Below, one piece after another: positions 36,799-64,000 of a stretch of 64,000 nucleotides of DNA (its first letter is position 1; each line of letters opens with the position of its first letter). Position numbers and translations under genes: made by a program. The stretch is taken from assembly GCF_011045215.1 (NCBI RefSeq), contig NZ_CP049202.1. One strand, given 5' to 3'. The notes below the pieces were generated by a model. That model saw only the letters and a program-made list of their open reading frames with translations, searched no databases and was not told the DNA's origin. The stretch is from Escherichia coli. GTDB taxonomy: Bacteria > Pseudomonadota > Gammaproteobacteria > Enterobacterales > Enterobacteriaceae.

Positions 36799-37161
36799 TT
36801 AACGTTCCTTTACTGAATGAGCATCATTTAATGCCTGAAGTTGTTTTTCGCGTATCTTATTGCGCTCGTTTTCTCTTACCCGTTTCACCTCTGCCATTTC
36901 GTTTCTTTCTCTACACGCTGATGCAAGCTCTTTTGCCTTACCAAGACTTAAAGGTTCAGGCTGATAATCAGATGTGTCAGACTTAATAGCTTCCTTAAAT
37001 GCTTCTGCTGCACAGGGGGTATCCTGTGTAATCTCTGTCAGTTGTTCTGGTGTTGCAGGTTGTTGCTCAAGGTAATCATTGTAAAAAAGACCACATATCA
37101 ACATAGCCATAACACCAACAAATATAAAAGCCAGAACAGATTTTAAATATATCGACTTCAT
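36799..37161 (-). CDS. hypothetical single-TM protein (traR-traC gap)
   Basis: 120-aa ORF, hydrophobic N-terminus, charged C-terminus. Confidence 0.45.
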   Translation of the reverse strand: MKSIYLKSVLAFIFVGVMAMLICGLFYNDYLEQQPATPEQLTEITQDTPCAAEAFKEAIKSDTSDYQPEPLSLGKAKELASACRERNEMAEVKRVRENERNKIREKQLQALNDAHSVKER

Positions 37162-37406
37162 TTCATTTTAGCCTTATATAATTCCCATTGTCGGATATAC
37201 TCCTCATACTGAGCCACTGGCACATTAACGATGACTCCGGCACACTCCAGTTTATTAACCGGTTCAGTAAATGCGCCTGTCGGTATATTCACTTCCAGAA
37301 ATTTACAGTCATTTTTCCAGTATCTCCCGACATCCAGTTCATCCATCGTGAATGACTGACTGGCGAACACAACAAGCGTAATAAAAGAAAAACATCCAGT
37401 AAGCAC
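37158..37406 (-). CDS. hypothetical small protein (traR-traC gap)
   Basis: 82-aa ORF with N-terminal hydrophobic segment. Confidence 0.4.
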   Translation of the reverse strand: MLTGCFSFITLVVFASQSFTMDELDVGRYWKNDCKFLEVNIPTGAFTEPVNKLECAGVIVNVPVAQYEEYIRQWELYKAKMK

Positions 37407-37558
37407 ACTACAAACTAATATTTTTCATCTGCTGATCTGCAGACTGAATTTTTCAGGGATAACAAACATAGCCAGTAAGTTAACAACACAGATAACCACA
37501 AGAAAGAGACACAGGAATATAAACCAGTCGATATTATTTCCTTCGAAGTAGTAAGCTC

Positions 37559-37777
37559 TCATTGCCCACCACCATTCAGTGTTTCCATCACATTGTTCAA
37601 AGGTTCATTTGTTTTAACTTCAATACACTCCCCTGTATTTCCAAAGCCCCTGCCTCCATGCGCTTCGATTGTCCGAAGAACCTGCACGCATACGTCCGTA
37701 TTTGGCATGGGAGTAACATTCCAGCTTCCGCCACCGTTAATATTTTTTATCAGCACAAGAAAAATAAAGGTATGCAT
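37559..37777 (-). CDS. hypothetical small secreted protein (traR-traC gap)
   Basis: 72-aa ORF with signal-peptide-like start. Confidence 0.35.
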   Translation of the reverse strand: MHTFIFLVLIKNINGGGSWNVTPMPNTDVCVQVLRTIEAHGGRGFGNTGECIEVKTNEPLNNVMETLNGGGQ

Positions 37778-37855
37778 TCTTTATTACCTCCAGTTAAATA
37801 TTAATCACTGAATATTCATTCAGTTAACTATGAGGTCAGAAACACCGCAGATTTT

Positions 37856-38329
37856 TCATTCGGATTTACTCTCTTCAGAAAACTGCCGGATGGTATCCTG
37901 TTCACGCTGACGAGTGGCAGACTCCTGCATTGCATCCACTTTCTCCTGCCAGAGACGCCGGATATCCTTTTCATCCCGACCAGTCAGTTTTTTACCGGAC
38001 AGCAGACGGTTAAGCAGTTCCTGTCTCGCATCCGGTATGTCTTCAGTCAGACGCATAAGCTGAAGCAGGCTCTGACGGCTGAGGACCATGAGTGATTCTG
38101 GCAGGAGGGTGAAGAAGCAAATAAAACAGCATACCGCACCACTGCAGGCAAGGACCGCAAACAGGATTTTCAGATATATACCATCAACGCCGAACGCAGC
38201 AATAACACAGGGAATCCATGCAATACACGCACAAAACGCCAGGATGTTATATATTCGGTTATGTCTGCGATATATCTGTTGATGTTCATCCAGAATAAAA
38301 TCGATTTTTTCAGCTTCTGATTTATGCAT
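37856..38329 (-). CDS. hypothetical membrane protein (traR-traC gap)
   Basis: about 157 aa from internal start MHKSEAEK...; two hydrophobic helices. Confidence 0.45.
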   Translation of the reverse strand: MHKSEAEKIDFILDEHQQIYRRHNRIYNILAFCACIAWIPCVIAAFGVDGIYLKILFAVLACSGAVCCFICFFTLLPESLMVLSRQSLLQLMRLTEDIPDARQELLNRLLSGKKLTGRDEKDIRRLWQEKVDAMQESATRQREQDTIRQFSEESKSE

Positions 38330-38543
38330 AGTGTTTCCTCTGCCTTTCCTGATACGCCTGACATTCAACACATAACGTCACACCGGGAAATATTTTCCGC
38401 CGGGCTTCCGGAACAGGATTTCCGCATGCTTCACAGAGATAAACAGGAATACCATGAACATTTATTTTCTGGCGTATCCGGTTTATTCCTGTCATGGTCA
38501 GTTGTTCTGTCACTGAATATGCTTCATCGGCTTCATCACTCAC
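38322..38543 (-). CDS. traR: TraR DksA-like zinc-finger protein
   Basis: 73 aa with C4 zinc finger (CEACGNPVPEARRKIFPGVTLCVEC). Confidence 0.85.
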   Translation of the reverse strand: MSDEADEAYSVTEQLTMTGINRIRQKINVHGIPVYLCEACGNPVPEARRKIFPGVTLCVECQAYQERQRKHYA

Positions 38544-38677
38544 GGAATATTCCTCCCGACATGTTCTGACACGCTACCGCCCATCCCTTTTCACGCACAG
38601 GGCACTCGTTTTACAGGCAGATTTTGAATACAGAAAGCCCGCCGGCATTGCCGGCTGATATACAACTTCAGGGCCAG

Positions 38678-39193
38678 TTAATTAATACGTGGTTTTCCCC
38701 ACGCAGACGGTTTAATAACAAAAAACACACTGGATGGCTGATGATAAACATCCTGATTATCAATATAAGGCGCTATCCATAATGCTGCCGTCTGCTCACC
38801 CGTTCTTAGCGGACGGGGAGGCGTTACCGGCACAACTGAACTGACCGGAACAACCGTTTTCACTTCCCGGGCAGCGGTAAACAGCGGGCGTGGCGCCAGC
38901 AGTTTCTGCTCCGGAAGTGCCGTCACCGCAGGTCTGCTGCCGGACGGAGTGGTCGCGGTGACGGTCTGCACCGGCATTGTCCGGAAGTTCCCTTCAGCCA
39001 GGCGCGGCAGTGATGCCGCAACCGGCTTTGCTTCTGAGGACTGCTCCAGTTTTTTGGCCTTATCATTGGCCTGCTCCATCGTCATACAGGTATCGGATGT
39101 GGTGGCGTTACACTCAAATTCCGTACTGGTTCCGGCACAGCCGGAAAGTAATAAGGTCCCCAGCAGAGGAATAAATAAAGAAATCTGTTTCAT
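38678..39193 (-). CDS. traV: TraV outer-membrane lipoprotein
   Basis: 171 aa; lipobox LLSGC. Confidence 0.85.
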   Translation of the reverse strand: MKQISLFIPLLGTLLLSGCAGTSTEFECNATTSDTCMTMEQANDKAKKLEQSSEAKPVAASLPRLAEGNFRTMPVQTVTATTPSGSRPAVTALPEQKLLAPRPLFTAAREVKTVVPVSSVVPVTPPRPLRTGEQTAALWIAPYIDNQDVYHQPSSVFFVIKPSAWGKPRIN

Positions 39194-47811: not shown

Positions 47812-47837
47812 CCTGCTTTCTCCTCTCTCTGGTTTTC

Positions 47838-48380
47838 AGCCCCCATCATCTTTTGAGTTTCGGGAGCCGCGGTTTTGACGTTTTGCGGGGACCTGCCTTT
47901 TGTTCCCTCCGGTATTCACCATCATCTTTTTGAGAACCTTCGCCGCAAGGGGCATCACTGCCACGGCCGGAAACGACTGTCCGGGGGCAGACCGCAAAAG
48001 TTTTTGCCTGCTTCTGGGCAAAAACTTTTGCGGGATGTGCATTTCACCCCTGGACTGGCGGAGACGGTTGTGGCTGTATCAGCCCCCGGCGACAGGGGAT
48101 TAAACAGGTGAATGGCACCGGACAGAACAACGGGCAGGGACCCGCCGCAGCGACGTGAAGCGCGGTTTGCGAAACGGCGTTGCCCCTTACATCCCGGCGG
48201 CCTTTTGCCGGGATGCCGGGAGCGCAGGCCACGGCGCGACAGAGGCGGCGCGACCGGAACGGTCGCTGCAAGCCCGGGGTTTCGCGTCAGGGATGGAAGC
48301 CCGCCAGGGCGGAGACAGCTTCGCTGGCTCCGTTCACGACAGCCCGCCCCGCCAGGGGGACGCCCGGAAAAGGCATAAGC
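47838..48380. repeat. ~540-bp structured repeat, copy 1 (candidate single-strand promoter, Frpo/ssi-like)
   Basis: about 95 percent identical to 53226..53790; contains perfect 15-bp inverted repeat GCAAAAGTTTTTGCC...GGCAAAAACTTTTGC and longer imperfect arms. Confidence 0.6.
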
Positions 48381-48709
48381 AGGAGAACAACAAAACAGAC
48401 AATAATCAGGGCAGCAGTAATCAGAGTCAGAACAGGAGGAAAAAGAGAATAATCAAAGGGAAGGTGATGTGATTTCTGACAGGTCATAAACAGAGAAGGC
48501 GGGGGAAAAGAACGGGCGCCGCAGGCGCACGTTCATCCCCGTTCCCGGAGGGAAACGGCCTTCCTGGCAGTCTGGTTGTTCATGCCCGTACAATGCCAGC
48601 AAGGAGAAAGGGGCCACCGGCGAACCAGCAGCCCCTTTATAAAGGCGCTTCAGTGCAGTCAGACCAGCATCAGCCCTGAAAAGGCGGGCCTGCGCCCGCC
48701 TCCAGGTTG

Positions 48710-50347: not shown

Positions 50348-52306
50348 TCAGGCGGCATCAGCCAGGTTATCGGTGCGTTCAGTGGCATCCGTCTGTGGGC
50401 GTGGTGCACACATCCAGCCAGGCACCCAGCGGTTGTCTTTCATGTGGAACTCTGCATGTTCAGCCGCATCGCCTTTCTTCATCTTCTCCGCGTCCCGTGC
50501 AGCACCGGACAGTCCTGCCTCATTCAGGGCTGCGATAATCTGCGGCTTTTTCAGGTGTCCGAAGAAGTTTGCTTTTGTCGGCTGCCACCAGTCGCGCATG
50601 TGAAAGCCGATGGCGCTTTCCAGCGAATCCAGCGGACTGCGTGACGTGTGACCATACTCACGGGTCTGAACACCGTGGATGCTGCACGCAGTGCAGAAAC
50701 TGAGCAGGGACAACAGCACCTCCTGACTGAGTGACAGGAACGTCGCCATGTCCCGTGACCATCCCTCCGGTAACAGGGCCGCAAGACGGGCTTTTTCTGC
50801 CATCATCGCCATGAACGCGGCACCTTCCTTCCCTGACGGCGCATCGCTGGTCAGCGAATAATGTTTACATTCCAGGCTGATTTGTGCTGGTTTACTGTAC
50901 GCTCCGCTGCCAAACACATTCAGGCAGAGCGTCCATGCCAGCAGTGCCAGAGATTTGTCCGGTTGCTGCATGAGTGCTGTCTGGACTGCCAGCGTGCGTT
51001 CGGAAGACATTTTCGTCAGCAGTGGCAGACTGATTTCCTCCACTGATGCTTTCTCCTGCACCTGTTCCGTGCGGTCAGCGTCATCAGTCGCGTCATCTTC
51101 ACTGCGCAACTGCACACCACGCTGGACACATACGTTTCCATAACGCCAGGACACCACCACGCCACTTCCGGCACGCATCTCCGGCGTCCACGCCCTGACC
51201 TTCGCCATGCAGTCAATCAGCTTCATTTCTGCTTCCAGCAGGTCGGATTCCTCACACTGATTTTCCAGCGCGTCGTAACGTGCCATCAGTTCGTTCAGGC
51301 GTTCTTCTTCCGCCTCCGTCAGCACAGCTTCCGGCTCCGGCAGACTGCGGTATGTTCCGGCATCCTCACGGCAGAAACCGACAGGCTCCATACGTCCAGC
51401 ACACCATTCCCAGCCTTCGGCTTCCCGAAGGTGTTCAGCAACAGCCTGGAGTTTTTCCAGCAGGGCGGCATCGAGCGCCACGCAGTCCACATAGCCACCC
51501 TCGTTGTCGCTGAACAAATCGGTGCGCAGTTCATCTGGCGAGAAGGCATCAGCCCCCACGAAGCGGAATTTACTGTTCCCCGCCACCACCACTTCACTTT
51601 CGGTCACCAGACGACGAATGGTCTGTACTTCCGGTTTTCCGCCCCATCCCGACTGACAGGCAGCTTCAAACACCTGTACCTGACGTGCGGTGTCGTTCTC
51701 CAGCGCCAGCGCCTGACAGTGCTCTGTGGTGATGCGGTCTTCTGCCAGCGCATCGAGGATGACAGGCGCAAGGTCAGCCAGTTTCAGCATTCGCTGAACG
51801 TGGCGGGGTGAATAGCCCAGCAAATCACCGATTTGTGCAGGTGTTTTGCCTTCCTGCGCCATTGCGCGGAATCCGGCAATCTGTTCGGCAGGGTGCATAT
51901 CCCGACGATGACCGTTTTCAGTCATTGATGCGGCAGTCGCCAGTTCCTGCGGAATGACCTTCACACGGACAGGCCAGTCAGCCGGAATGATGCCACGCTC
52001 TGCCAGCATGTTGAGTGCTGCCAGTCGGCGACCACCTGCGGCGACACCGTGGCGGTCACCTGGCAGGGCATGAACAACCAGATTCTGTAACAGGCCGACA
52101 CCTTTAATGGAGTCCGCCAGTTCGCTGACGGACTCCGCAGAATACGGCACCGTGCGCACATTCAGCGGTGACTTAATCAGTGAGGACAGCGGCACGCTCA
52201 CTTCCTCCGTCTGCGCCAGCAGGGCAGACAGGGCAGTCTCCTGCTCTTTTGACGGTTTACGGCTGGATTTACGCTCCGTTTTTGTCTTAGACTCTGTAAC
52301 TGACAT
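50348..52306 (-). CDS. ParB-like nuclease-domain protein (leading region)
   Basis: 652 aa with N-terminal ParB/Srx-like region. Confidence 0.75.
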   Translation of the reverse strand: MSVTESKTKTERKSSRKPSKEQETALSALLAQTEEVSVPLSSLIKSPLNVRTVPYSAESVSELADSIKGVGLLQNLVVHALPGDRHGVAAGGRRLAALNMLAERGIIPADWPVRVKVIPQELATAASMTENGHRRDMHPAEQIAGFRAMAQEGKTPAQIGDLLGYSPRHVQRMLKLADLAPVILDALAEDRITTEHCQALALENDTARQVQVFEAACQSGWGGKPEVQTIRRLVTESEVVVAGNSKFRFVGADAFSPDELRTDLFSDNEGGYVDCVALDAALLEKLQAVAEHLREAEGWEWCAGRMEPVGFCREDAGTYRSLPEPEAVLTEAEEERLNELMARYDALENQCEESDLLEAEMKLIDCMAKVRAWTPEMRAGSGVVVSWRYGNVCVQRGVQLRSEDDATDDADRTEQVQEKASVEEISLPLLTKMSSERTLAVQTALMQQPDKSLALLAWTLCLNVFGSGAYSKPAQISLECKHYSLTSDAPSGKEGAAFMAMMAEKARLAALLPEGWSRDMATFLSLSQEVLLSLLSFCTACSIHGVQTREYGHTSRSPLDSLESAIGFHMRDWWQPTKANFFGHLKKPQIIAALNEAGLSGAARDAEKMKKGDAAEHAEFHMKDNRWVPGWMCAPRPQTDATERTDNLADAA

Positions 52307-52369
52307 ATATTTCTCCTTTGACCGGGATGGTTGTATGTCTGCCGGACGCGTTCCCGTCCGGCACCTCTC

Positions 52370-53225: not shown

Positions 53226-53790
53226 TGTTTTCAGCCCCCATCATCTTTTGAGTTTCAGGAGCCGCGGTTTGACGTTTTGCGGGGACCTGCCTTTTGTTCC
53301 CTCCGGTATTCACCATCACCTTTTTGAGAACCTTCGCCGCAAGGGGCATCACTGCCACGGCCGGAAACGACTGTCCGGGGGCAGACCGCAAAAGTTTTTG
53401 CCTGCTTCTGGGCAAAAACTTTTGCGGGATGTGCATTTCACCCCTGGACTGGCGGAGACGGTTGTGGCTGTATCAGCCCCCGGCGACAGGGGATTAAACA
53501 GGTGAATGGCACCGGACAGAACAACGGGCAGGGCCCCGCCGCAACGACGGAGAGCGCGTGCGCGAAACGGCGTTGCCCCTTACATCCCGGCGGCCTTTTG
53601 TCGGGATGCCGGGAGCGCAGGCCACGGCGCGACAGAGGCGGCGCGACCGGAACGGTCGCTGCAAGCCAGGGTTTCGCGTCAGGGATAGAAGCCCGCCAGG
53701 GCGGAGACAGCTCCGCTGGCTCCGTTCACGACAGCCCGCCCCGCCCCGCCAGGGGGACGCCCGGAAAAGCCATAAACAGGAGAGGAACGG
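53226..53790. repeat. ~540-bp structured repeat, copy 2 (candidate single-strand promoter upstream of ssb)
   Basis: near-identical to 47838..48380, ends about 20 bp upstream of the ssb RBS. Confidence 0.6.
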
Positions 53791-59639: not shown

Positions 59640-60073
59640 GTACCGTTTATCACCGTCCGGCTGACCCTTCAGGCGATGACAGTTACGTGCGACCGTTGTT
59701 TGCCGATCGTTGCCAGGCCGGTTTTCCTTCGCCTGCCACTGATTATGCTGAGCAGGAACTGGATCTGAACAGCTATTGCATCAGCAGACCTGCAGCCACC
59801 TTCTTTCTGCGCGCCAGCGGTGAATCGATGAACCAGTCTGGCGTGCAGAATGGTGATCTGCTGGTAGTGGACAGGGCCGAAAAACCACAACACGGGGACA
59901 TCGTTATCGCTGAGATCGACGGTGAGTTCACCGTCAAACGACTGCTGTTGCGCCCACGCCCGGCACTGGAGCCGGTTTCAGACAGCCCGGAGTTCCGCAC
60001 ACTGTATCCGGAAAACATCTGTATTTTTGGTATTGTCACTCACGTGATACACAGGACGCGGGAGTTACGCTGA
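59636..60073 (+). CDS. impA: UmuD-like protein (ImpA-type)
   Basis: 145 aa with LexA/UmuD-like peptidase region (...GESMNQSGVQNGDLLVVDR...). Confidence 0.85.
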   Translation: MSTVYHRPADPSGDDSYVRPLFADRCQAGFPSPATDYAEQELDLNSYCISRPAATFFLRASGESMNQSGVQNGDLLVVDRAEKPQHGDIVIAEIDGEFTVKRLLLRPRPALEPVSDSPEFRTLYPENICIFGIVTHVIHRTRELR

Positions 60074-61343
60074 TGTTTGCACTGGCTGATATCAACAGTT
60101 TCTACGCCTCATGTGAAAAAGTTTTCCGCCCGAACCTTCGCAACGAACCGGTCATCGTACTCAGCAATAACGATGGCTGTGTGATCGCGCGCAGCCCGGA
60201 GGCAAAAGCCCTTGGCATCAGAATGGGGCAGCTCTGGTTTCAGGTGAGACAAATGCGCCTGGAGAAGAAAATACATGTATTTTCCAGCAATTATGCGCTG
60301 TACCACAGCATGAGCCAACGGGTTATGGCTGTTCTGGAGTCGCTTTCTCCCGCAGTTGAGCCCTACTCAATTGATGAAATGTTCATTGATTTGCGGGGGA
60401 TAAATCATTGCATCTCTCCGGAGGTTTTTGGTCATCAGCTCAGGGAACAGGTAAAGAGCTGGACAGGACTCACCATGGGGGTGGGCATTGCGCCTACAAA
60501 AACGCTGGCTAAAAGTGCACAGTGGGCAACAAAGCAATGGCCACAGTTTTCCGGTGTGGTCGCGCTGACGGCAGAAAACCGTAATCGGAGCTTGAAGCTA
60601 CTGGGGCTGCAGCCAGTTGGTGAGGTCTGGGGAGTAGGACGCAAACTGACGGAAAAGCTGAATGCGCTGGGTATTAACACAGCACTGCAACTGGCGCAGG
60701 CTAACACGGCATTCATCCGGAAAAACTTCAGCGTCATTCTTGAGCGTACGGTACGCGAACTCAACGGCGAGTCCAGCATATCCCTGGAAGAAGCACCACC
60801 GGCAAAACAGCAGATTGTCTGTAGTCGCAGTTTTGGTGAACGAATCACAGACAAAGATGCCATGCACCAGGCTGTTGTTCAGTATGCAGAGCGGGCCGCA
60901 GAGAAACTACGTGGGGAGCGTCAGTATTGTCGGCAGGTGACGACATTTGTACGGACATCCCCCTTTGCAGTAAAAGAACCCTGTTACAGCAATGCCGCTG
61001 TGGAAAAGCTTTCATTGCCACACAGGACAGCCGGGACATTATTGCCGCCGCATGCAGAGCCTTAAACCATGTCTGGCGTGAAGGGTACCGCTATATGAAG
61101 GCAGGAGTCATGCTGGCTGATTTCACACCATCGGGTATAGCGCAGCCGGGATTATTTGATGAAATCCAGCCCCGTAAAAACAGTGAAAAGTTAATGAAAA
61201 CACTCGATGAACTGAACCAGTCGGGAAAAGGGAAAGTGTGGTTTGCGGGGCGAGGAACCGCCCCTGAATGGCAAATGAAACGGGAAATGCTATCGCCTTC
61301 GTATACAACACAATGGACTGAGATCCCCATTGCTTCATTCTGA
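60073..61343 (+). pseudogene. impB: UmuC-like Y-family DNA polymerase (ImpB-type) with frameshift near 61010-61020
   Basis: 330-aa ORF (MFALADINSFYASCEKVFRP...) continues as a 138-aa ORF in another frame; together about 423 codons. Confidence 0.75.
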
Positions 61344-61347
61344 TATA

Positions 61348-61776
61348 TCAGAATAATTTTTTCATTTTAAGACGCACATCATTCATTGCCTCCTGCACCG
61401 AATCAGTAGCAGAAGGAGGCATTTTTTCAACAGATTGCGAAGCACCGAGTTCAGTCAACACAGCTCTGATATCGGCCTGAGAAGGCTTCCATCCAGTCGT
61501 CTGACTGAGTAAGGTTACAACCTGATCTGCTGAAAACTCCTCGCTCAAAATGGCTGTCAGCAATACAGGCAGGCGAGGATCAAGTTGGTGTAACGCCATT
61601 CCAGAAATAAATGCATTCCGGAACAGCTCACCACGCTCAGAACGCGGAACGGACTCTATCGCTTCCAAAGTTTGAAAGTCTGCAGCTTTTTCCGGATGCA
61701 GATAAAGTGTGTATTTTTTCCTTTTCCGTTCATCGTCCACAATATTACTCCTCTTTGAAAGCCGCGATAGCTTCAA
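61348..61776 (-). CDS. parR: ParR/StbB-like partition adaptor
   Basis: 142-aa ORF directly downstream of the ParM-like gene. Confidence 0.6.
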   Translation of the reverse strand: MKLSRLSKRSNIVDDERKRKKYTLYLHPEKAADFQTLEAIESVPRSERGELFRNAFISGMALHQLDPRLPVLLTAILSEEFSADQVVTLLSQTTGWKPSQADIRAVLTELGASQSVEKMPPSATDSVQEAMNDVRLKMKKLF

Positions 61777-62716
61777 CCAGTGCTGTCTGTGGCGACTCCA
61801 TCATCACTACTTTTTGCCCAAGATGGTGCCATGCCGTTTTTATCGAATCATAGATCAACGGGGCCCCACCACCGACAACATAAACACGATTCACATGATG
61901 GAAATCACCGAGCTCATTGACTACTTGCTCCCCCAAACTGGCAATAGCCCCCTCAATGGTATTAAGGACCAGATCAGTTTTTGTTTCGTCATTTATAACC
62001 TGCCGAACAAAGTCCGGGTCATTACGACGTTTAATCAATTCATCTGCAACGAGGAAACTGGTATCACTGGATGCCATGCGCAATGCACTCATTGCAGCTT
62101 TCGTAACTGAAGACACACCAATGCCAGAATTACCATGAATGGCACTTACAGAGTCAAATTGACCAACGATAACACCAACATCAAGCGTAGTGCCGCCAAT
62201 ATCAACTACCAGCGATTTTTCGAACTGACCAACTTTATCCACGACCAGACGAGAAAACACAGCTGGCAATGATTCAGGCATCACATCAACGTGTTCAATG
62301 GTGAAAACATCGCCTTTATTAAGACGAATCGGCCTCATTAAATTCTCAATTTTACGCTGAATGTTGAGTTCATTTTTTTGACACTCTTTCGTATAGAACT
62401 CACTGATAGGCAAAGTCACAGTCAATGATACAGGCTGAGGCGCTAATCCACTATTCAGTAAAGCGTGATGCACAGCTAACAGGTTAACATCCGTATATTG
62501 ATACTCAATATGAGTCGTAAGAATAGATTGGTTGCTAACTTCATCATACGTGTATTTTTTACCATCCAGTTCATAGTTAAATGTCTGGCGAATTCCTAAC
62601 CCGTCAACCTTCCATCCATGACGAAATGAGTTTTGCGACAACGACTTACAGATTTTTCCATTATCATTCCATGCCAACTTGATTGTTGTTGAACCATCAT
62701 CGCAGTATACGTTCAT
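61745..62716 (-). CDS. parM: ParM/StbA actin-like partition ATPase
   Basis: 323 aa; DDGSTTIKL, DIGGTTLD and VVGGGA motifs as in R1 ParM. Confidence 0.85.
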   Translation of the reverse strand: MNVYCDDGSTTIKLAWNDNGKICKSLSQNSFRHGWKVDGLGIRQTFNYELDGKKYTYDEVSNQSILTTHIEYQYTDVNLLAVHHALLNSGLAPQPVSLTVTLPISEFYTKECQKNELNIQRKIENLMRPIRLNKGDVFTIEHVDVMPESLPAVFSRLVVDKVGQFEKSLVVDIGGTTLDVGVIVGQFDSVSAIHGNSGIGVSSVTKAAMSALRMASSDTSFLVADELIKRRNDPDFVRQVINDETKTDLVLNTIEGAIASLGEQVVNELGDFHHVNRVYVVGGGAPLIYDSIKTAWHHLGQKVVMMESPQTALVEAIAAFKEE

Positions 62717-62719
62717 CTA

Positions 62720-62940
62720 TAGCCCCTTAAATACTCAATCTGAGTAAATCATTGTTTCTAGTTGCAAGGTAATACTCAATTTGAGCACTATCATAGTTAT
62801 GAAATCACAAAACACAAGTATTATTTATTACATCACATAACGCACTTCATATTTCACACTTCATAAATATGAACACATATTGACACCTCAGGTTACCGTG
62901 TCAAAATATCATCATACTTCACATATCACATTTATGAGGT
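62720..62940. promoter_or_regulatory. centromere-like repeat region between the divergent par operons
   Basis: AT-rich, iterated AATACTCAAT and TCACA/TTCATA motifs. Confidence 0.45.
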
Positions 62941-62944
62941 TGCA

Positions 62945-63589
62945 ATGATTACTGTAGTTGGTGGGAACAAAGGTGGTTCAGGGAAAACTACCATTGCATC
63001 AAACCTGGCTATTGCTCTCGCAAATAAAGGAAGGGAAGTCTGCCTGTTAAACGGAGATCTACAACGAACAGCCGCAAAACATCATGCGGAACGAGAAGCT
63101 GCAGGACTGTTACCAGCAATAACCCTTGTTGAGAAATTTGATAACCTGACACAAACACTACAGGCTCTGAATGAAAAGTTCGATGATGTAATAGTGGATG
63201 TCGCAGGAAGAAACTCAAAGGAATTCATAACGAGTGGAGTTGTCGCACATCAAATAATTGCGCCACTACAGTGTTCTCAACCAGATCTGGATACTCTTAC
63301 AGAACTAGAACAACAGATAGACGCAATGCGTAACCTTAACCCGGAACTTAAGGTTTATTGTTTACAAAGTATGGCAACAACCAATCCGGTTTTGAGGGGA
63401 AATGAGAGAAAAGAATTCCTTGAATATCTTGAAGAATTCCCAACAATTCAAGTCCTTGATTCAGTTATTTGTTTCAGAAAAGTCTATCGCGATTGCATGA
63501 GCAACGGCACCGGTGTAGTAGAAACGAACAATACAGCAGCCAAAGCAGAAATTGAACATTTAATGAATGAGGTATTTGGCCCATGGTGA
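62945..63589 (+). CDS. parA: ParA-family small Walker ATPase (type Ib partition)
   Basis: 214 aa; deviant Walker A GGNKGGSGKTT. Confidence 0.85.
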   Translation: MITVVGGNKGGSGKTTIASNLAIALANKGREVCLLNGDLQRTAAKHHAEREAAGLLPAITLVEKFDNLTQTLQALNEKFDDVIVDVAGRNSKEFITSGVVAHQIIAPLQCSQPDLDTLTELEQQIDAMRNLNPELKVYCLQSMATTNPVLRGNERKEFLEYLEEFPTIQVLDSVICFRKVYRDCMSNGTGVVETNNTAAKAEIEHLMNEVFGPW

Positions 63590-63858
63590 AGAAACCCAGC
63601 CAGCAAGCATTAAACAGAGCTGCAGTTACGGTAGAACAAGCAGAGGCTCTGGCTCAGCGCCTTGCGGATAAACCATACGGCGCGCCGGAAAAACCCGAAC
63701 CAGAAAAACAATGTCGGACGACAATCTCTCTTGGTGAAAGCATGCTTGTCACAATAGAAGATCTGGCATTGAGGAATAAACGCAATGGTAAAGATCCAAA
63801 AAATGTAAGTGCCATCGTCAGAGTAGCCCTTGAGCAATACTTAAAAACACTAACGTAA
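63583..63858 (+). CDS. parB: small ParB/ParG-like ribbon-helix-helix protein
   Basis: 91-aa ORF translationally coupled to parA; basic; followed by repeats at 63860-64000. Confidence 0.6.
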   Translation: MVKKPSQQALNRAAVTVEQAEALAQRLADKPYGAPEKPEPEKQCRTTISLGESMLVTIEDLALRNKRNGKDPKNVSAIVRVALEQYLKTLT

Positions 63859-64000
63859 TAATCAATAAGTTATTACTTATGAAATCACACTTGTGAATTC
63901 ATACTTTTTAAGCACCCTTGCATACAAGAGATCACATATTGCAGTGGTCTCTTTTTTTACAGAATAAATCACAATTCATAATTATGATTTATGAATTATG

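Follow-up and report, generated by a model that had tools for sequence, protein, structure and literature searches.

A pB171-type double partition locus on a conjugative plasmid of Escherichia coli, with a candidate ParR box inside parM

Introduction

The double partition locus, which joins a type II and a type Ib plasmid partition system, is well studied and already known, having first been described on the Escherichia coli plasmid pB171, an EPEC adherence-factor plasmid of approximately 69 kb. The prototype of the type II systems is parMRC of plasmid R1, whose parC consists of ten 11-bp iterons flanking the promoter.

In pB171 two 10-bp ParR repeats lie upstream of parM (PMC9426499) and arrays of direct repeats are found upstream and downstream of parAB (PMC7602700); binding to these repeats by ParR and ParB has been reported (PMC7602700; PMC9426499). 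Its ParB is a ribbon-helix-helix (RHH) protein with two parC sites (PMC2441792), and par2 positions plasmids over the nucleoid (PMC4270457; PMC9662831). Deletion of parB from pUTI89, which carries a stbAB/parAB locus, raised parA 128-fold and stbA 16-fold and destabilised the plasmid (PMC9800825). Among the type Ib systems, the sites bound by omega of pSM19035 are 7-bp units (5'-WATCACW-3') which follow one another without spacers, may face either way, and lie in promoter regions which double as centromeres (PMC2441792), and the parH centromere of TP228 is described as tetramer boxes with AT-rich spacers (PMC3130281).

Here we report the gene content, protein identities and repeat anatomy, together with the conservation of the latter, of a locus of this kind found near the end of a 64-kb stretch of E. 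coli DNA, hereafter the window.

Results and Discussion

Organization of the locus

The ORF map of the window shows parR and parM, both on the minus strand, diverging from parA and parB, both on the plus strand, across the 228 bp of parC1 (Table 1). This order and orientation agree with the annotation of identical records, and the last 7 nt of parA are also the first of parB. We regard this as almost certainly a double partition locus of the pB171 type, composed of par1 (parM-parR, type II) and par2 (parA-parB, type Ib), which diverge from the shared parC1, and completed past parB by parC2, the second centromere of par2. Since such loci have been well studied, the finding is correct but ordinary.

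The original prediction had placed an actin-type and a Walker-type system back to back around a common repeat region, with a second repeat cluster past the small ParB gene, and had likened the whole to pB171. All four genes are where it put them, the common region is parC1, which holds two repeat sets between the parM and parA start codons, and the second cluster is parC2. Because the interval originally given, 61348–63858, has the stop codons of parR and parB as its exact limits, this second cluster falls outside it. The likeness to pB171 also held: low similarity to the pB171 Par proteins would have spoken against it, and instead ParR and ParA proved identical to their pB171 references (see below) within the same published architecture.

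Table 1. Features of the double partition locus (positions in the 64-kb window)
Feature	Position	Strand	Description
parR (stbB)	61348..61740	-	Type II centromere-binding adaptor of the RHH class, 130 aa, starting with GTG; Pfam Plasmid_stab_B E=9e-30
parM (stbA)	61745..62716	-	Actin-like segregation ATPase, 323 aa; Pfam StbA_N E=2e-64, ParM C-terminal domain E=4e-44
Candidate third ParR-type box	62501..62515	-	ACTCATATTGAGTAT, inside parM, codons T68-Y72; third match to the 15-nt pattern
parC1	62717..62944	.	Control and centromere region of 228 bp shared by the divergent operons, flanked by the parM and parA start codons, 32% G+C; both repeat sets
Proximal ParR box	62731..62745	-	ACTCAGATTGAGTAT, 29 nt upstream of the parM ATG; holds one copy of the 10-bp direct repeat AATACTCAAT
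Distal ParR box	62772..62786	-	GCTCAAATTGAGTAT; 41 bp from the proximal box
ParB array A	62790..62873	.	12 unspaced 7-bp units (WTCAYAN), both orientations, adjoining the parA -35 hexamer on its upstream side; from register and per-unit scores
Predicted parAB promoter P2	62880..62907	+	TTGACA, 16-nt spacer, TG-CAAAAT; 10/12 matches in consensus scan, extended -10
ParB array B	62911..62938	.	Four 7-bp units in operator position, downstream of the P2 -10 hexamer and ahead of the parA Shine-Dalgarno sequence
parA	62945..63589	+	Type Ib partition ATPase of 214 aa, small and of the Walker type; residues 9-15 form the deviant Walker A motif KGGSGKT; Pfam AAA_31, MipZ, CbiA
parB	63583..63858	+	Small RHH centromere-binding protein and repressor, 91 aa; Pfam RHH_1 21.7 bits (cut-off 20.5 bits)
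parC2	63859..63995	.	Second centromere region, downstream of parB, 27% G+C; 7-bp units as in parC1, at 63877-63904 and 63968-63995
Predicted terminator-like hairpin of the parAB operon	63926..63960	+	Stem of 10 pairs with a T7 run behind it; flanked by the two parC2 arrays

The type II system, par1

The GTG start of parR is preceded by a GAGGAG Shine-Dalgarno sequence and yields a protein of 130 aa which matches PDB 2JD3 end to end (130/130 residues, 100% identity), a structure named as that of pB171 ParR (PMC3074162). A longer reading frame of 142 aa, opening with TTG, was rejected as an over-extension. ParM matches the structures of R1 ParM with E=4e-76 (43% identity over 295 aligned columns). 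With an actin-fold ATPase, a small RHH adaptor encoded downstream of parM, and repeats upstream of it, par1 is a type II (ParMRC) system.

Searching the window with the 15-nt pattern ACTCANNTTGAGTAT, one mismatch being allowed, returned three matches where 0.06 would be expected. Two of these are the ParR boxes (ACTCA-N3-TGAGT) of parC1, located at -29 and -70 from the parM ATG, and both contain the 10-bp repeat AATACTCAAT. A proximal box was found at -28 to -34 in 13 of the 14 pB171-clade loci scanned.

Might par2 alone partition this plasmid, par1 being a redundant passenger or mainly a regulatory remnant? In the mini-R1 tests of Ebersbach and Gerdes (2001), as relayed in PMC9800825, parAB stabilised more than stbAB, and in relatives ParR is the fastest to diverge (identities of 55% and 40%, compared to 86% and 76% for ParA). 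We nevertheless consider this unlikely. All four reading frames are intact, the parR-parM-parA-parB order is kept in Enterobacter and Pectobacterium plasmids at down to 60–76% protein identity, the ParR boxes are conserved along with the genes, and ParM possesses many invariant residues; taken together these features argue for purifying selection on par1.

The third match to the pattern, a perfect ACTCA-N3-TGAGTAT, is located within parM at 201 nt from its start; 230 bp, or about 22 turns of the helix, separate it from the proximal box. It is perfect in all 15 relatives (15/15) which carry the same boxes upstream of parM. Only six codons are frozen across 12 diverged lineages, and three of the six fall within this box, the synonymous positions of which appear to be under selection that maintains it. 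ParR may bind here as well. That par1 of the pB171 family has a third ParR binding site inside parM, beyond the accepted two 10-bp repeats, is a suggestion which we rate slightly short of even. Auxiliary operators which act by DNA looping include lacO2 and the internal gal operator, and by analogy the box could serve in the same manner, or it could instead give the ParR scaffold of the partition complex an additional point of attachment. A literature search for an intragenic ParR site returned nothing relevant, which is no proof that it is undescribed; this conserved box is the only new-looking detail of the locus and may be new.

The type Ib system, par2

ParA is identical to the sequence of UniRef100 cluster Q0H055, which serves as the pB171 ParA reference (PMC13245405). 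It has no N-terminal DNA-binding domain, its domain matches beginning at residue 2, as is characteristic of type Ib, and its closest solved structures are those of a ParA family protein and ParF (ParF, E=1e-7).

The assignment of ParB to the RHH proteins draws on several lines of evidence. The Pfam score just exceeds its cut-off (Table 1), and the strand RTTISL is invariant in 25 homologues. The AlphaFold model has a pLDDT of approximately 90 over residues 50–90, and when it was compared to the PDB RHH proteins ranked first, with every E-value 1.3 or worse. A profile search gave EndoAI (E=0.08) and CopG (E=0.2), so that no fold or profile match was better than 0.08. The top matches by fold and profile, all with weak E-values and supportive only, are the RHH proteins MetJ, ParD2, pCXC100 ParB and CopG. 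An RHH centromere-binding protein of this kind is again what type Ib systems possess. The P1/F-type ParABS systems (type Ia), which have a large HTH/CTPase ParB and a ParA with an N-terminal regulatory domain, do not fit, ParA here being only 214 aa long and the 91-aa ParB having an RHH match only.

The ties of ParM and ParB to the pB171 proteins are indirect, and rest on membership of the same 90% clusters, on reference accessions cited by third parties, and on a fragment named "Orf70 protein" in the ParB cluster, which is identical to the ParB of the window in 67/67 residues. UniProt W1WW55 is cited as the pB171 ParB reference (PMC13245405); it has no established link to the "Orf70 protein" fragment, which makes the ParB identity the weaker point.

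Many database records suggest another role for these two genes, naming their products "division plane positioning ATPase MipZ," "AAA family ATPase" and "CopG family transcriptional regulator," and with NCBIfam ParA_partition ParA scores only 117 bits, under the 180-bit cut-off. That parAB specifies a MipZ/MinD-like positioning ATPase and a CopG-type transcription factor, rather than a partition system, is however very improbable. Its ParA is the pB171 reference sequence, and experiments on pB171 have demonstrated plasmid positioning by par2; the closest solved relatives, ParF and ParA, are plasmid partition ATPases; two repeat arrays flank the genes, as is typical of type Ib systems; and in pUTI89 the deletion of parB leads to plasmid loss (PMC9800825).

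The repeats of parC1 and parC2

Besides the two ParR boxes parC1 contains an unrelated repeat set, namely 16 unspaced 7-bp units (WTCAYAN) in both orientations. The core motif TCAYA/TRTGA is present in 12 copies, compared to a mean of 3.5 and a maximum of 9 among 2000 dinucleotide-preserving shuffles of the region. In the 137 bp of parC2, shuffled in the same way, there are 9 copies (shuffle mean 1.7, maximum 6), and the units form two arrays in 7-bp register. The spacing between neighbouring units is a multiple of 7 bp in 15 of 18 gaps, and six of the locus's units contain ATCACA. The 200-bp bins over parC1 are the richest in the motif of the whole window, and remain so when AT-rich bins only are considered. 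In the primary papers on pB171 the ParB repeats were reportedly described as 6-bp units, whereas the period here is clearly 7 bp.

Both regions are AT-rich (32% and 27% G+C, respectively, in a window of 51%) and short AT-rich words recur easily in such intergenic or promoter DNA, but a chance origin of the repeats has next to no probability and was rejected, since in each region 0/2000 shuffles reach the observed counts, other AT-rich bins hold at most 5 motifs against 12, the 7-bp register is strict, indels between relatives measure precisely 7 bp, and both the motif and its arrangement survive at approximately 70% DNA identity.

In relatives, array A differs by indels of one unit and by C/T substitutions at the degenerate Y position, and the four units of array B are also kept in the Enterobacter and Pectobacterium plasmids (approximately 70% DNA identity), which share the motifs and the layout although parC1 as a whole is only 66–69% identical. 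No part of the locus varies more among relatives than parC1, whose 7-bp units turn over rapidly beside nearly unchanged proteins.

The predicted promoter P2 is conserved in relatives. A consensus scan of the parC1 minus strand found no parMR promoter (P1); the two ParR boxes enclose a TTGCAA hexamer which has no convincing -10 partner. The primary pB171 papers are also said to involve IHF. One match to the IHF consensus (AATCAATAAGTTA) is found where parC2 begins (63860–63872); with two occurrences in the window and 2.7 expected, the pattern shows no enrichment. The far end of parC2 is the stop codon of a convergent integrase gene.

Proposed mechanism

For DNA binding, repression and plasmid movement we draw, by analogy, on the published work on pB171 and pUTI89. 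In par1, ParR dimers would bind the palindromic ACTCA-N3-TGAGT boxes adjoining the parM start; the resulting complex would both repress the parMR promoter and capture the ends of ParM actin-like filaments, the growth of which would then drive sister plasmids apart. In par2, RHH dimers of ParB presumably bind the WTCAYAN arrays of parC1 and parC2 cooperatively, one per 7-bp unit, and these complexes would stimulate nucleoid-bound ParA-ATP such that the plasmids become evenly spaced over the nucleoid. Since arrays lie on either side of the -35 hexamer and occupy the DNA from the -10 hexamer to the parA start codon, parAB is probably repressed by ParB as well, and so, through the shared region, is parMR.

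Distribution and significance

Matches to the locus were found in 1517 plasmids of PLSDB and in 734 of 5426 complete E. coli genomes, that is, about one in seven. The original prediction had taken the locus as a hint of plasmid lineage; this part fared poorly. Proteins 97–100% identical occur on IncFIB/FII, IncFIA/FIC/IncR and IncI-gamma/K1 plasmids, and because it is present in several incompatibility groups the locus is a weak lineage marker which cannot serve to assign a plasmid to a lineage. What the analysis does provide is fixed names for four genes vaguely labelled in databases ("AAA family ATPase," "MipZ," "CopG family regulator" or "hypothetical protein") and the marking of two centromeres, neither of which carried any annotation before. 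The turnover of units in parC1 and the intragenic box could bear on partition-mediated incompatibility and on the assembly of a ParR scaffold on so few sites.

Comparison with known systems

The locus shares with R1 parMRC an actin-like ParM, the location of parR downstream of parM, and a centromere/operator upstream of parM. It differs in having two palindromic boxes and a candidate intragenic one in place of the R1 iterons, and in that the region is shared with a second system.

With delta/omega of pSM19035, a type Ib system with an RHH ParB, par2 has in common a small Walker ATPase paired with a small RHH protein, and the likeness extends to the repeats, which in both are unspaced 7-bp units in either orientation. 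The motif differs from the pSM19035 unit in tolerating T at its fifth position (TCAYA), the host belongs to a different phylum, and omega has no detectable similarity to the ParB described here. Sequence and profile comparison revealed no relationship of ParB to either omega or ParG. The latter belongs to TP228 parFGH (type Ib), which resembles par2 in that ParF is among the closest solved relatives of ParA and its partner ParG is likewise small, of the RHH type and flexible at the N-terminus; unlike the present locus it has a single upstream centromere and lacks a paired type II system.

The stbAB/parAB locus of pUTI89 from uropathogenic E. coli UTI89, for which we took the 114,230-bp record, is 99.6% identical in DNA over 2.7 kb. 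ParM, ParA and ParB are identical and ParR agrees in 129/130 residues; the differences from the window include 7 substitutions in parC1 and one in parC2.

To the pB171 double par locus the likeness extends to gene order and orientation, an identical ParR, a ParA equal to the literature reference sequence, two 10-bp ParR repeats upstream of parM, and ParB repeat arrays on both sides of parAB. No difference was detected in this comparison, which was made by proteins and published layout, so that small differences in parC1 or parC2 DNA are possible. The carriers themselves are of different kinds: pB171 is an adherence-factor plasmid, and the locus described here resides on a conjugative plasmid of the F type which has a complete tra region.

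Gene organization and protein products

According to the ORF map, the interval contains two divergent gene pairs, parM-parR (par1) and parA-parB (par2), all four genes being intact; the arrangement is as originally predicted, and the interval noted bounds the genes exactly. The GTG start of parR lies four bases past the parM stop and is preceded by a GAGGAG Shine-Dalgarno sequence; a 142-aa form initiating at TTG, taken from a mechanical ORF list, was rejected, the 130-aa form being the one used in public annotations and matching a solved structure over its full length. The ATG of parB lies within the 3' end of parA, and this overlap suggests that the two genes are translationally coupled.

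Features of the double partition locus and its repeat arrays
Feature	Coordinates	Strand	Size	Remarks
parR	61348 (end) to 61740 (GTG start)	-	130 aa	downstream of parM
parM	61745-62716	-	323 aa	
parC1		 	228 bp	between parM and parA start codons; 32% G+C
Array A (parC1)	62790-62873		12 consecutive units	9 or 10 of 12 good matches
Array B (parC1)	62911-62938		four units	between predicted -10 hexamer and parA ribosome-binding site
parA	62945-63589	+	214 aa	
parB	63583-63858	+	91 aa	
parC2			137 bp	after parB, up to stop codon of convergent integrase gene; 27% G+C
parC2 arrays	63877-63904 and 63968-63995		four units each	

Both of the ParM domains defined by Pfam are present in ParM (E=2e-64 and 4e-44), which matches the R1 ParM structures at E=4e-76 with 43% identity across the aligned part. 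ParR contains the Pfam Plasmid_stab_B domain and is identical at 130/130 residues to PDB 2JD3, the structure of pB171 ParR (PMC3074162). ParA, a short Walker ATPase, has no additional domain at its N terminus, and its Walker A motif is of the deviant type (KGGSGKT, residues 9-15). Among solved structures it is closest to a ParA family protein and to TP228 ParF, and its exact sequence constitutes UniRef100 cluster Q0H055, which serves as "pB171 ParA" in PMC13245405. The resemblance to the pB171 par proteins that had been put forward is borne out by ParR and ParA.

The only domain match of ParB is to the ribbon-helix-helix (RHH) fold, barely over the Pfam cut-off, and its best structure and profile matches are the RHH proteins MetJ, ParD2, pCXC100 ParB, EndoAI and CopG, none of them statistically strong. 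Its RTTISL segment, expected to be the DNA-reading strand, is invariant in 25 homologs with identity down to 47%. In the AlphaFold model the two helices which follow this segment have a pLDDT of ~90, with much lower values for the N-terminal 45 residues.

On the parR side the locus is bordered by a umuC/impB-like Y-family polymerase gene (60073-61343). Its coding sequence is divided between two overlapping ORFs of 330 and 138 aa and measures 1271 nt against 1272 nt in intact relatives; it is apparently a pseudogene produced by a 1-nt frameshift. No CDS is recorded for this gene in the PLSDB entry of a near-identical plasmid. Upstream of it, the impC/dinI-like and umuD genes seem to be intact. 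The stop codons of umuC and parR converge only 4 nt apart, leaving no space for separate terminators, and are spanned by a perfect 16-nt palindrome, TTCTGATATATCAGAA (61338-61353).

ParB-type repeats

Two unrelated sets of repeats are found in the locus, 7-bp ParB-type units and palindromic ParR-type boxes, and the shared repeat region predicted between the operons corresponds to parC1, where both occur. The second cluster predicted after the small ParB gene also exists, as parC2, but falls outside the interval originally noted. The ParB-type unit, WTCAYAN, occurs in both orientations without spacing, and gaps between adjacent units are multiples of 7 bp in 15 of 18 cases. Pentamer cores number 12 in parC1 (shuffle mean 3.5) and 9 in parC2 (1.7), counts which none of 2000 shuffles reached for either region; no comparable core density was found elsewhere in the 64-kb window, other AT-rich parts included. 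A terminator-like hairpin is predicted between the two parC2 arrays.

Sequence comparison indicates more rapid evolution of parC1 than of the flanking genes. Its length differs among close relatives by exactly one 7-bp unit (+7 in plasmid record L006, -7 in L007) and several of its substitutions are C/T swaps at the Y position, the pattern expected from selection on a repeated protein-binding unit. The nearest record differs from the window locus by one base, 62857, which is such a Y position. Relative to L004, a closely related record as large as pUTI89, 7 of the 228 parC1 positions differ, as against 2 of ~2290 coding positions. An identity of at least 99% is reached by only 26 of 1090 records when parC1 with its edges is compared, and by 309 of 1517 for the locus as a whole.

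ParR-type boxes and a box inside parM

The ParR-type box is the palindrome ACTCA-N3-TGAGT. Two copies, each containing the 10-bp direct repeat AATACTCAAT, lie 41 bp apart in parC1, at -29 and -70 relative to the parM ATG. Allowing at most one mismatch, the window contains three matches to the 15-nt pattern ACTCANNTTGAGTAT, where 0.06 would be expected; two of these are the parC1 boxes. The third, ACTCATATTGAGTAT, is perfect and lies inside parM (62501-62515), 201 nt into the gene, covering codons T68-H69-I70-E71-Y72.

Comparison of relatives points to probable selection for this box, a candidate third ParR site within parM. All relatives that combine such upstream boxes with a TTH[IV]EY-encoding parM (15/15) have a perfect internal box, in which only the spacer varies, at the third position of the His codon. 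Among relatives that encode the same peptide without upstream boxes, only 2/27 have it in perfect form (0/5 of the Enterobacterales loci among them), although most of these 27 are from Aeromonas, whose differing base composition may explain part of the contrast. Across 12 diverged lineages the third-position identity of parM averages 0.45, and only 6 of 138 amino-acid-invariant degenerate codons are a single codon in all 12; T68, E71 and Y72 are three of the six. Lineages in which His69 is replaced by Asn have lost the internal box, and two of them (L012 and L026) have four upstream boxes instead.

Proposed mechanism and regulation

The following scheme is proposed from the anatomy of the locus and the literature on this system. 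[quoted passage not shown] A role for ParB as repressor would fit the layout of parC1, in which array A stops just short of the -35 hexamer predicted for parA and array B covers the stretch between the -10 hexamer and the start codon. Autorepression of par1 might likewise occur through the proximal ParR box at -29; a consensus scan of parC1 detected no par1 promoter. The locus of pUTI89 is 99.6% identical to that in the window, with identical ParM, ParA and ParB, and deletion of its parB raised parA 128-fold and stbA (parM) 16-fold and destabilized the plasmid (PMC9800825), which supports autoregulation and cross-repression of par1 by ParB.

Distribution

The locus is very common. In PLSDB 1517 plasmids match it, 981 covering at least 80% of the query, and among 5426 complete E. 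coli genomes there are 1264 with a match and 734 in which most of the locus is present, nearly all matching places being on plasmids. It occurs on IncFIB/FII, IncFIA/FIC/IncR and IncI-gamma/K1 plasmids with proteins 97-100% identical. Of the interpretation first offered, the match to pB171 stands, but the locus is a weak hint of plasmid lineage because it crosses incompatibility groups.

Diverged copies (40-86% protein identity) on Enterobacter and Pectobacterium plasmids keep the gene order, including the flanking umuC and an integrase gene that follows parB, immediately in Enterobacter and with one gene intervening in Pectobacterium. The ParR boxes and the 7-bp motif are also retained, as is the division of the units between an upstream array and an operator array of four units. 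A different architecture of double par locus, tandem and not divergent, is found in L011 (NZ_CP035469.1, IncI1/B/O; 355-2971), where parM-parR (67% ParM identity) follows a different small parA-parB and parM is preceded by four to five ParR-type boxes.

Elsewhere in the window, a gene of the leading region that lies at ~50360-52320 (by collinearity with 37084-39042 of plasmid record L002) has the annotation ParB/RepB/Spo0J family protein; it adjoins psiB and ssb, has no ParA partner and is probably not a partition system. Two stretches of ~555 bp (47832-48386 and 53227-53783) each align at the other's reference-plasmid position with 96-97% identity and are therefore a dispersed repeat in the leading region.

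Comparison with known systems

The window locus belongs to the pB171 type of double par locus and is not a variant of it, all testable features being present, and the system is already known and widespread. The pB171 parC has been described as having "two 10-bp repeats", a description of which the parM-internal box is no part. The primary pB171 papers are said to give 6-bp ParB repeats, whereas the period of the sequence here is 7 bp. No sequence similarity was detected between ParB and omega of the Gram-positive plasmid pSM19035. The unit organization of the ParB sites is nevertheless formally the same as that bound by omega, which recognizes unspaced 7-bp WATCACW in either orientation, and six of the ParB-type units contain ATCACA.
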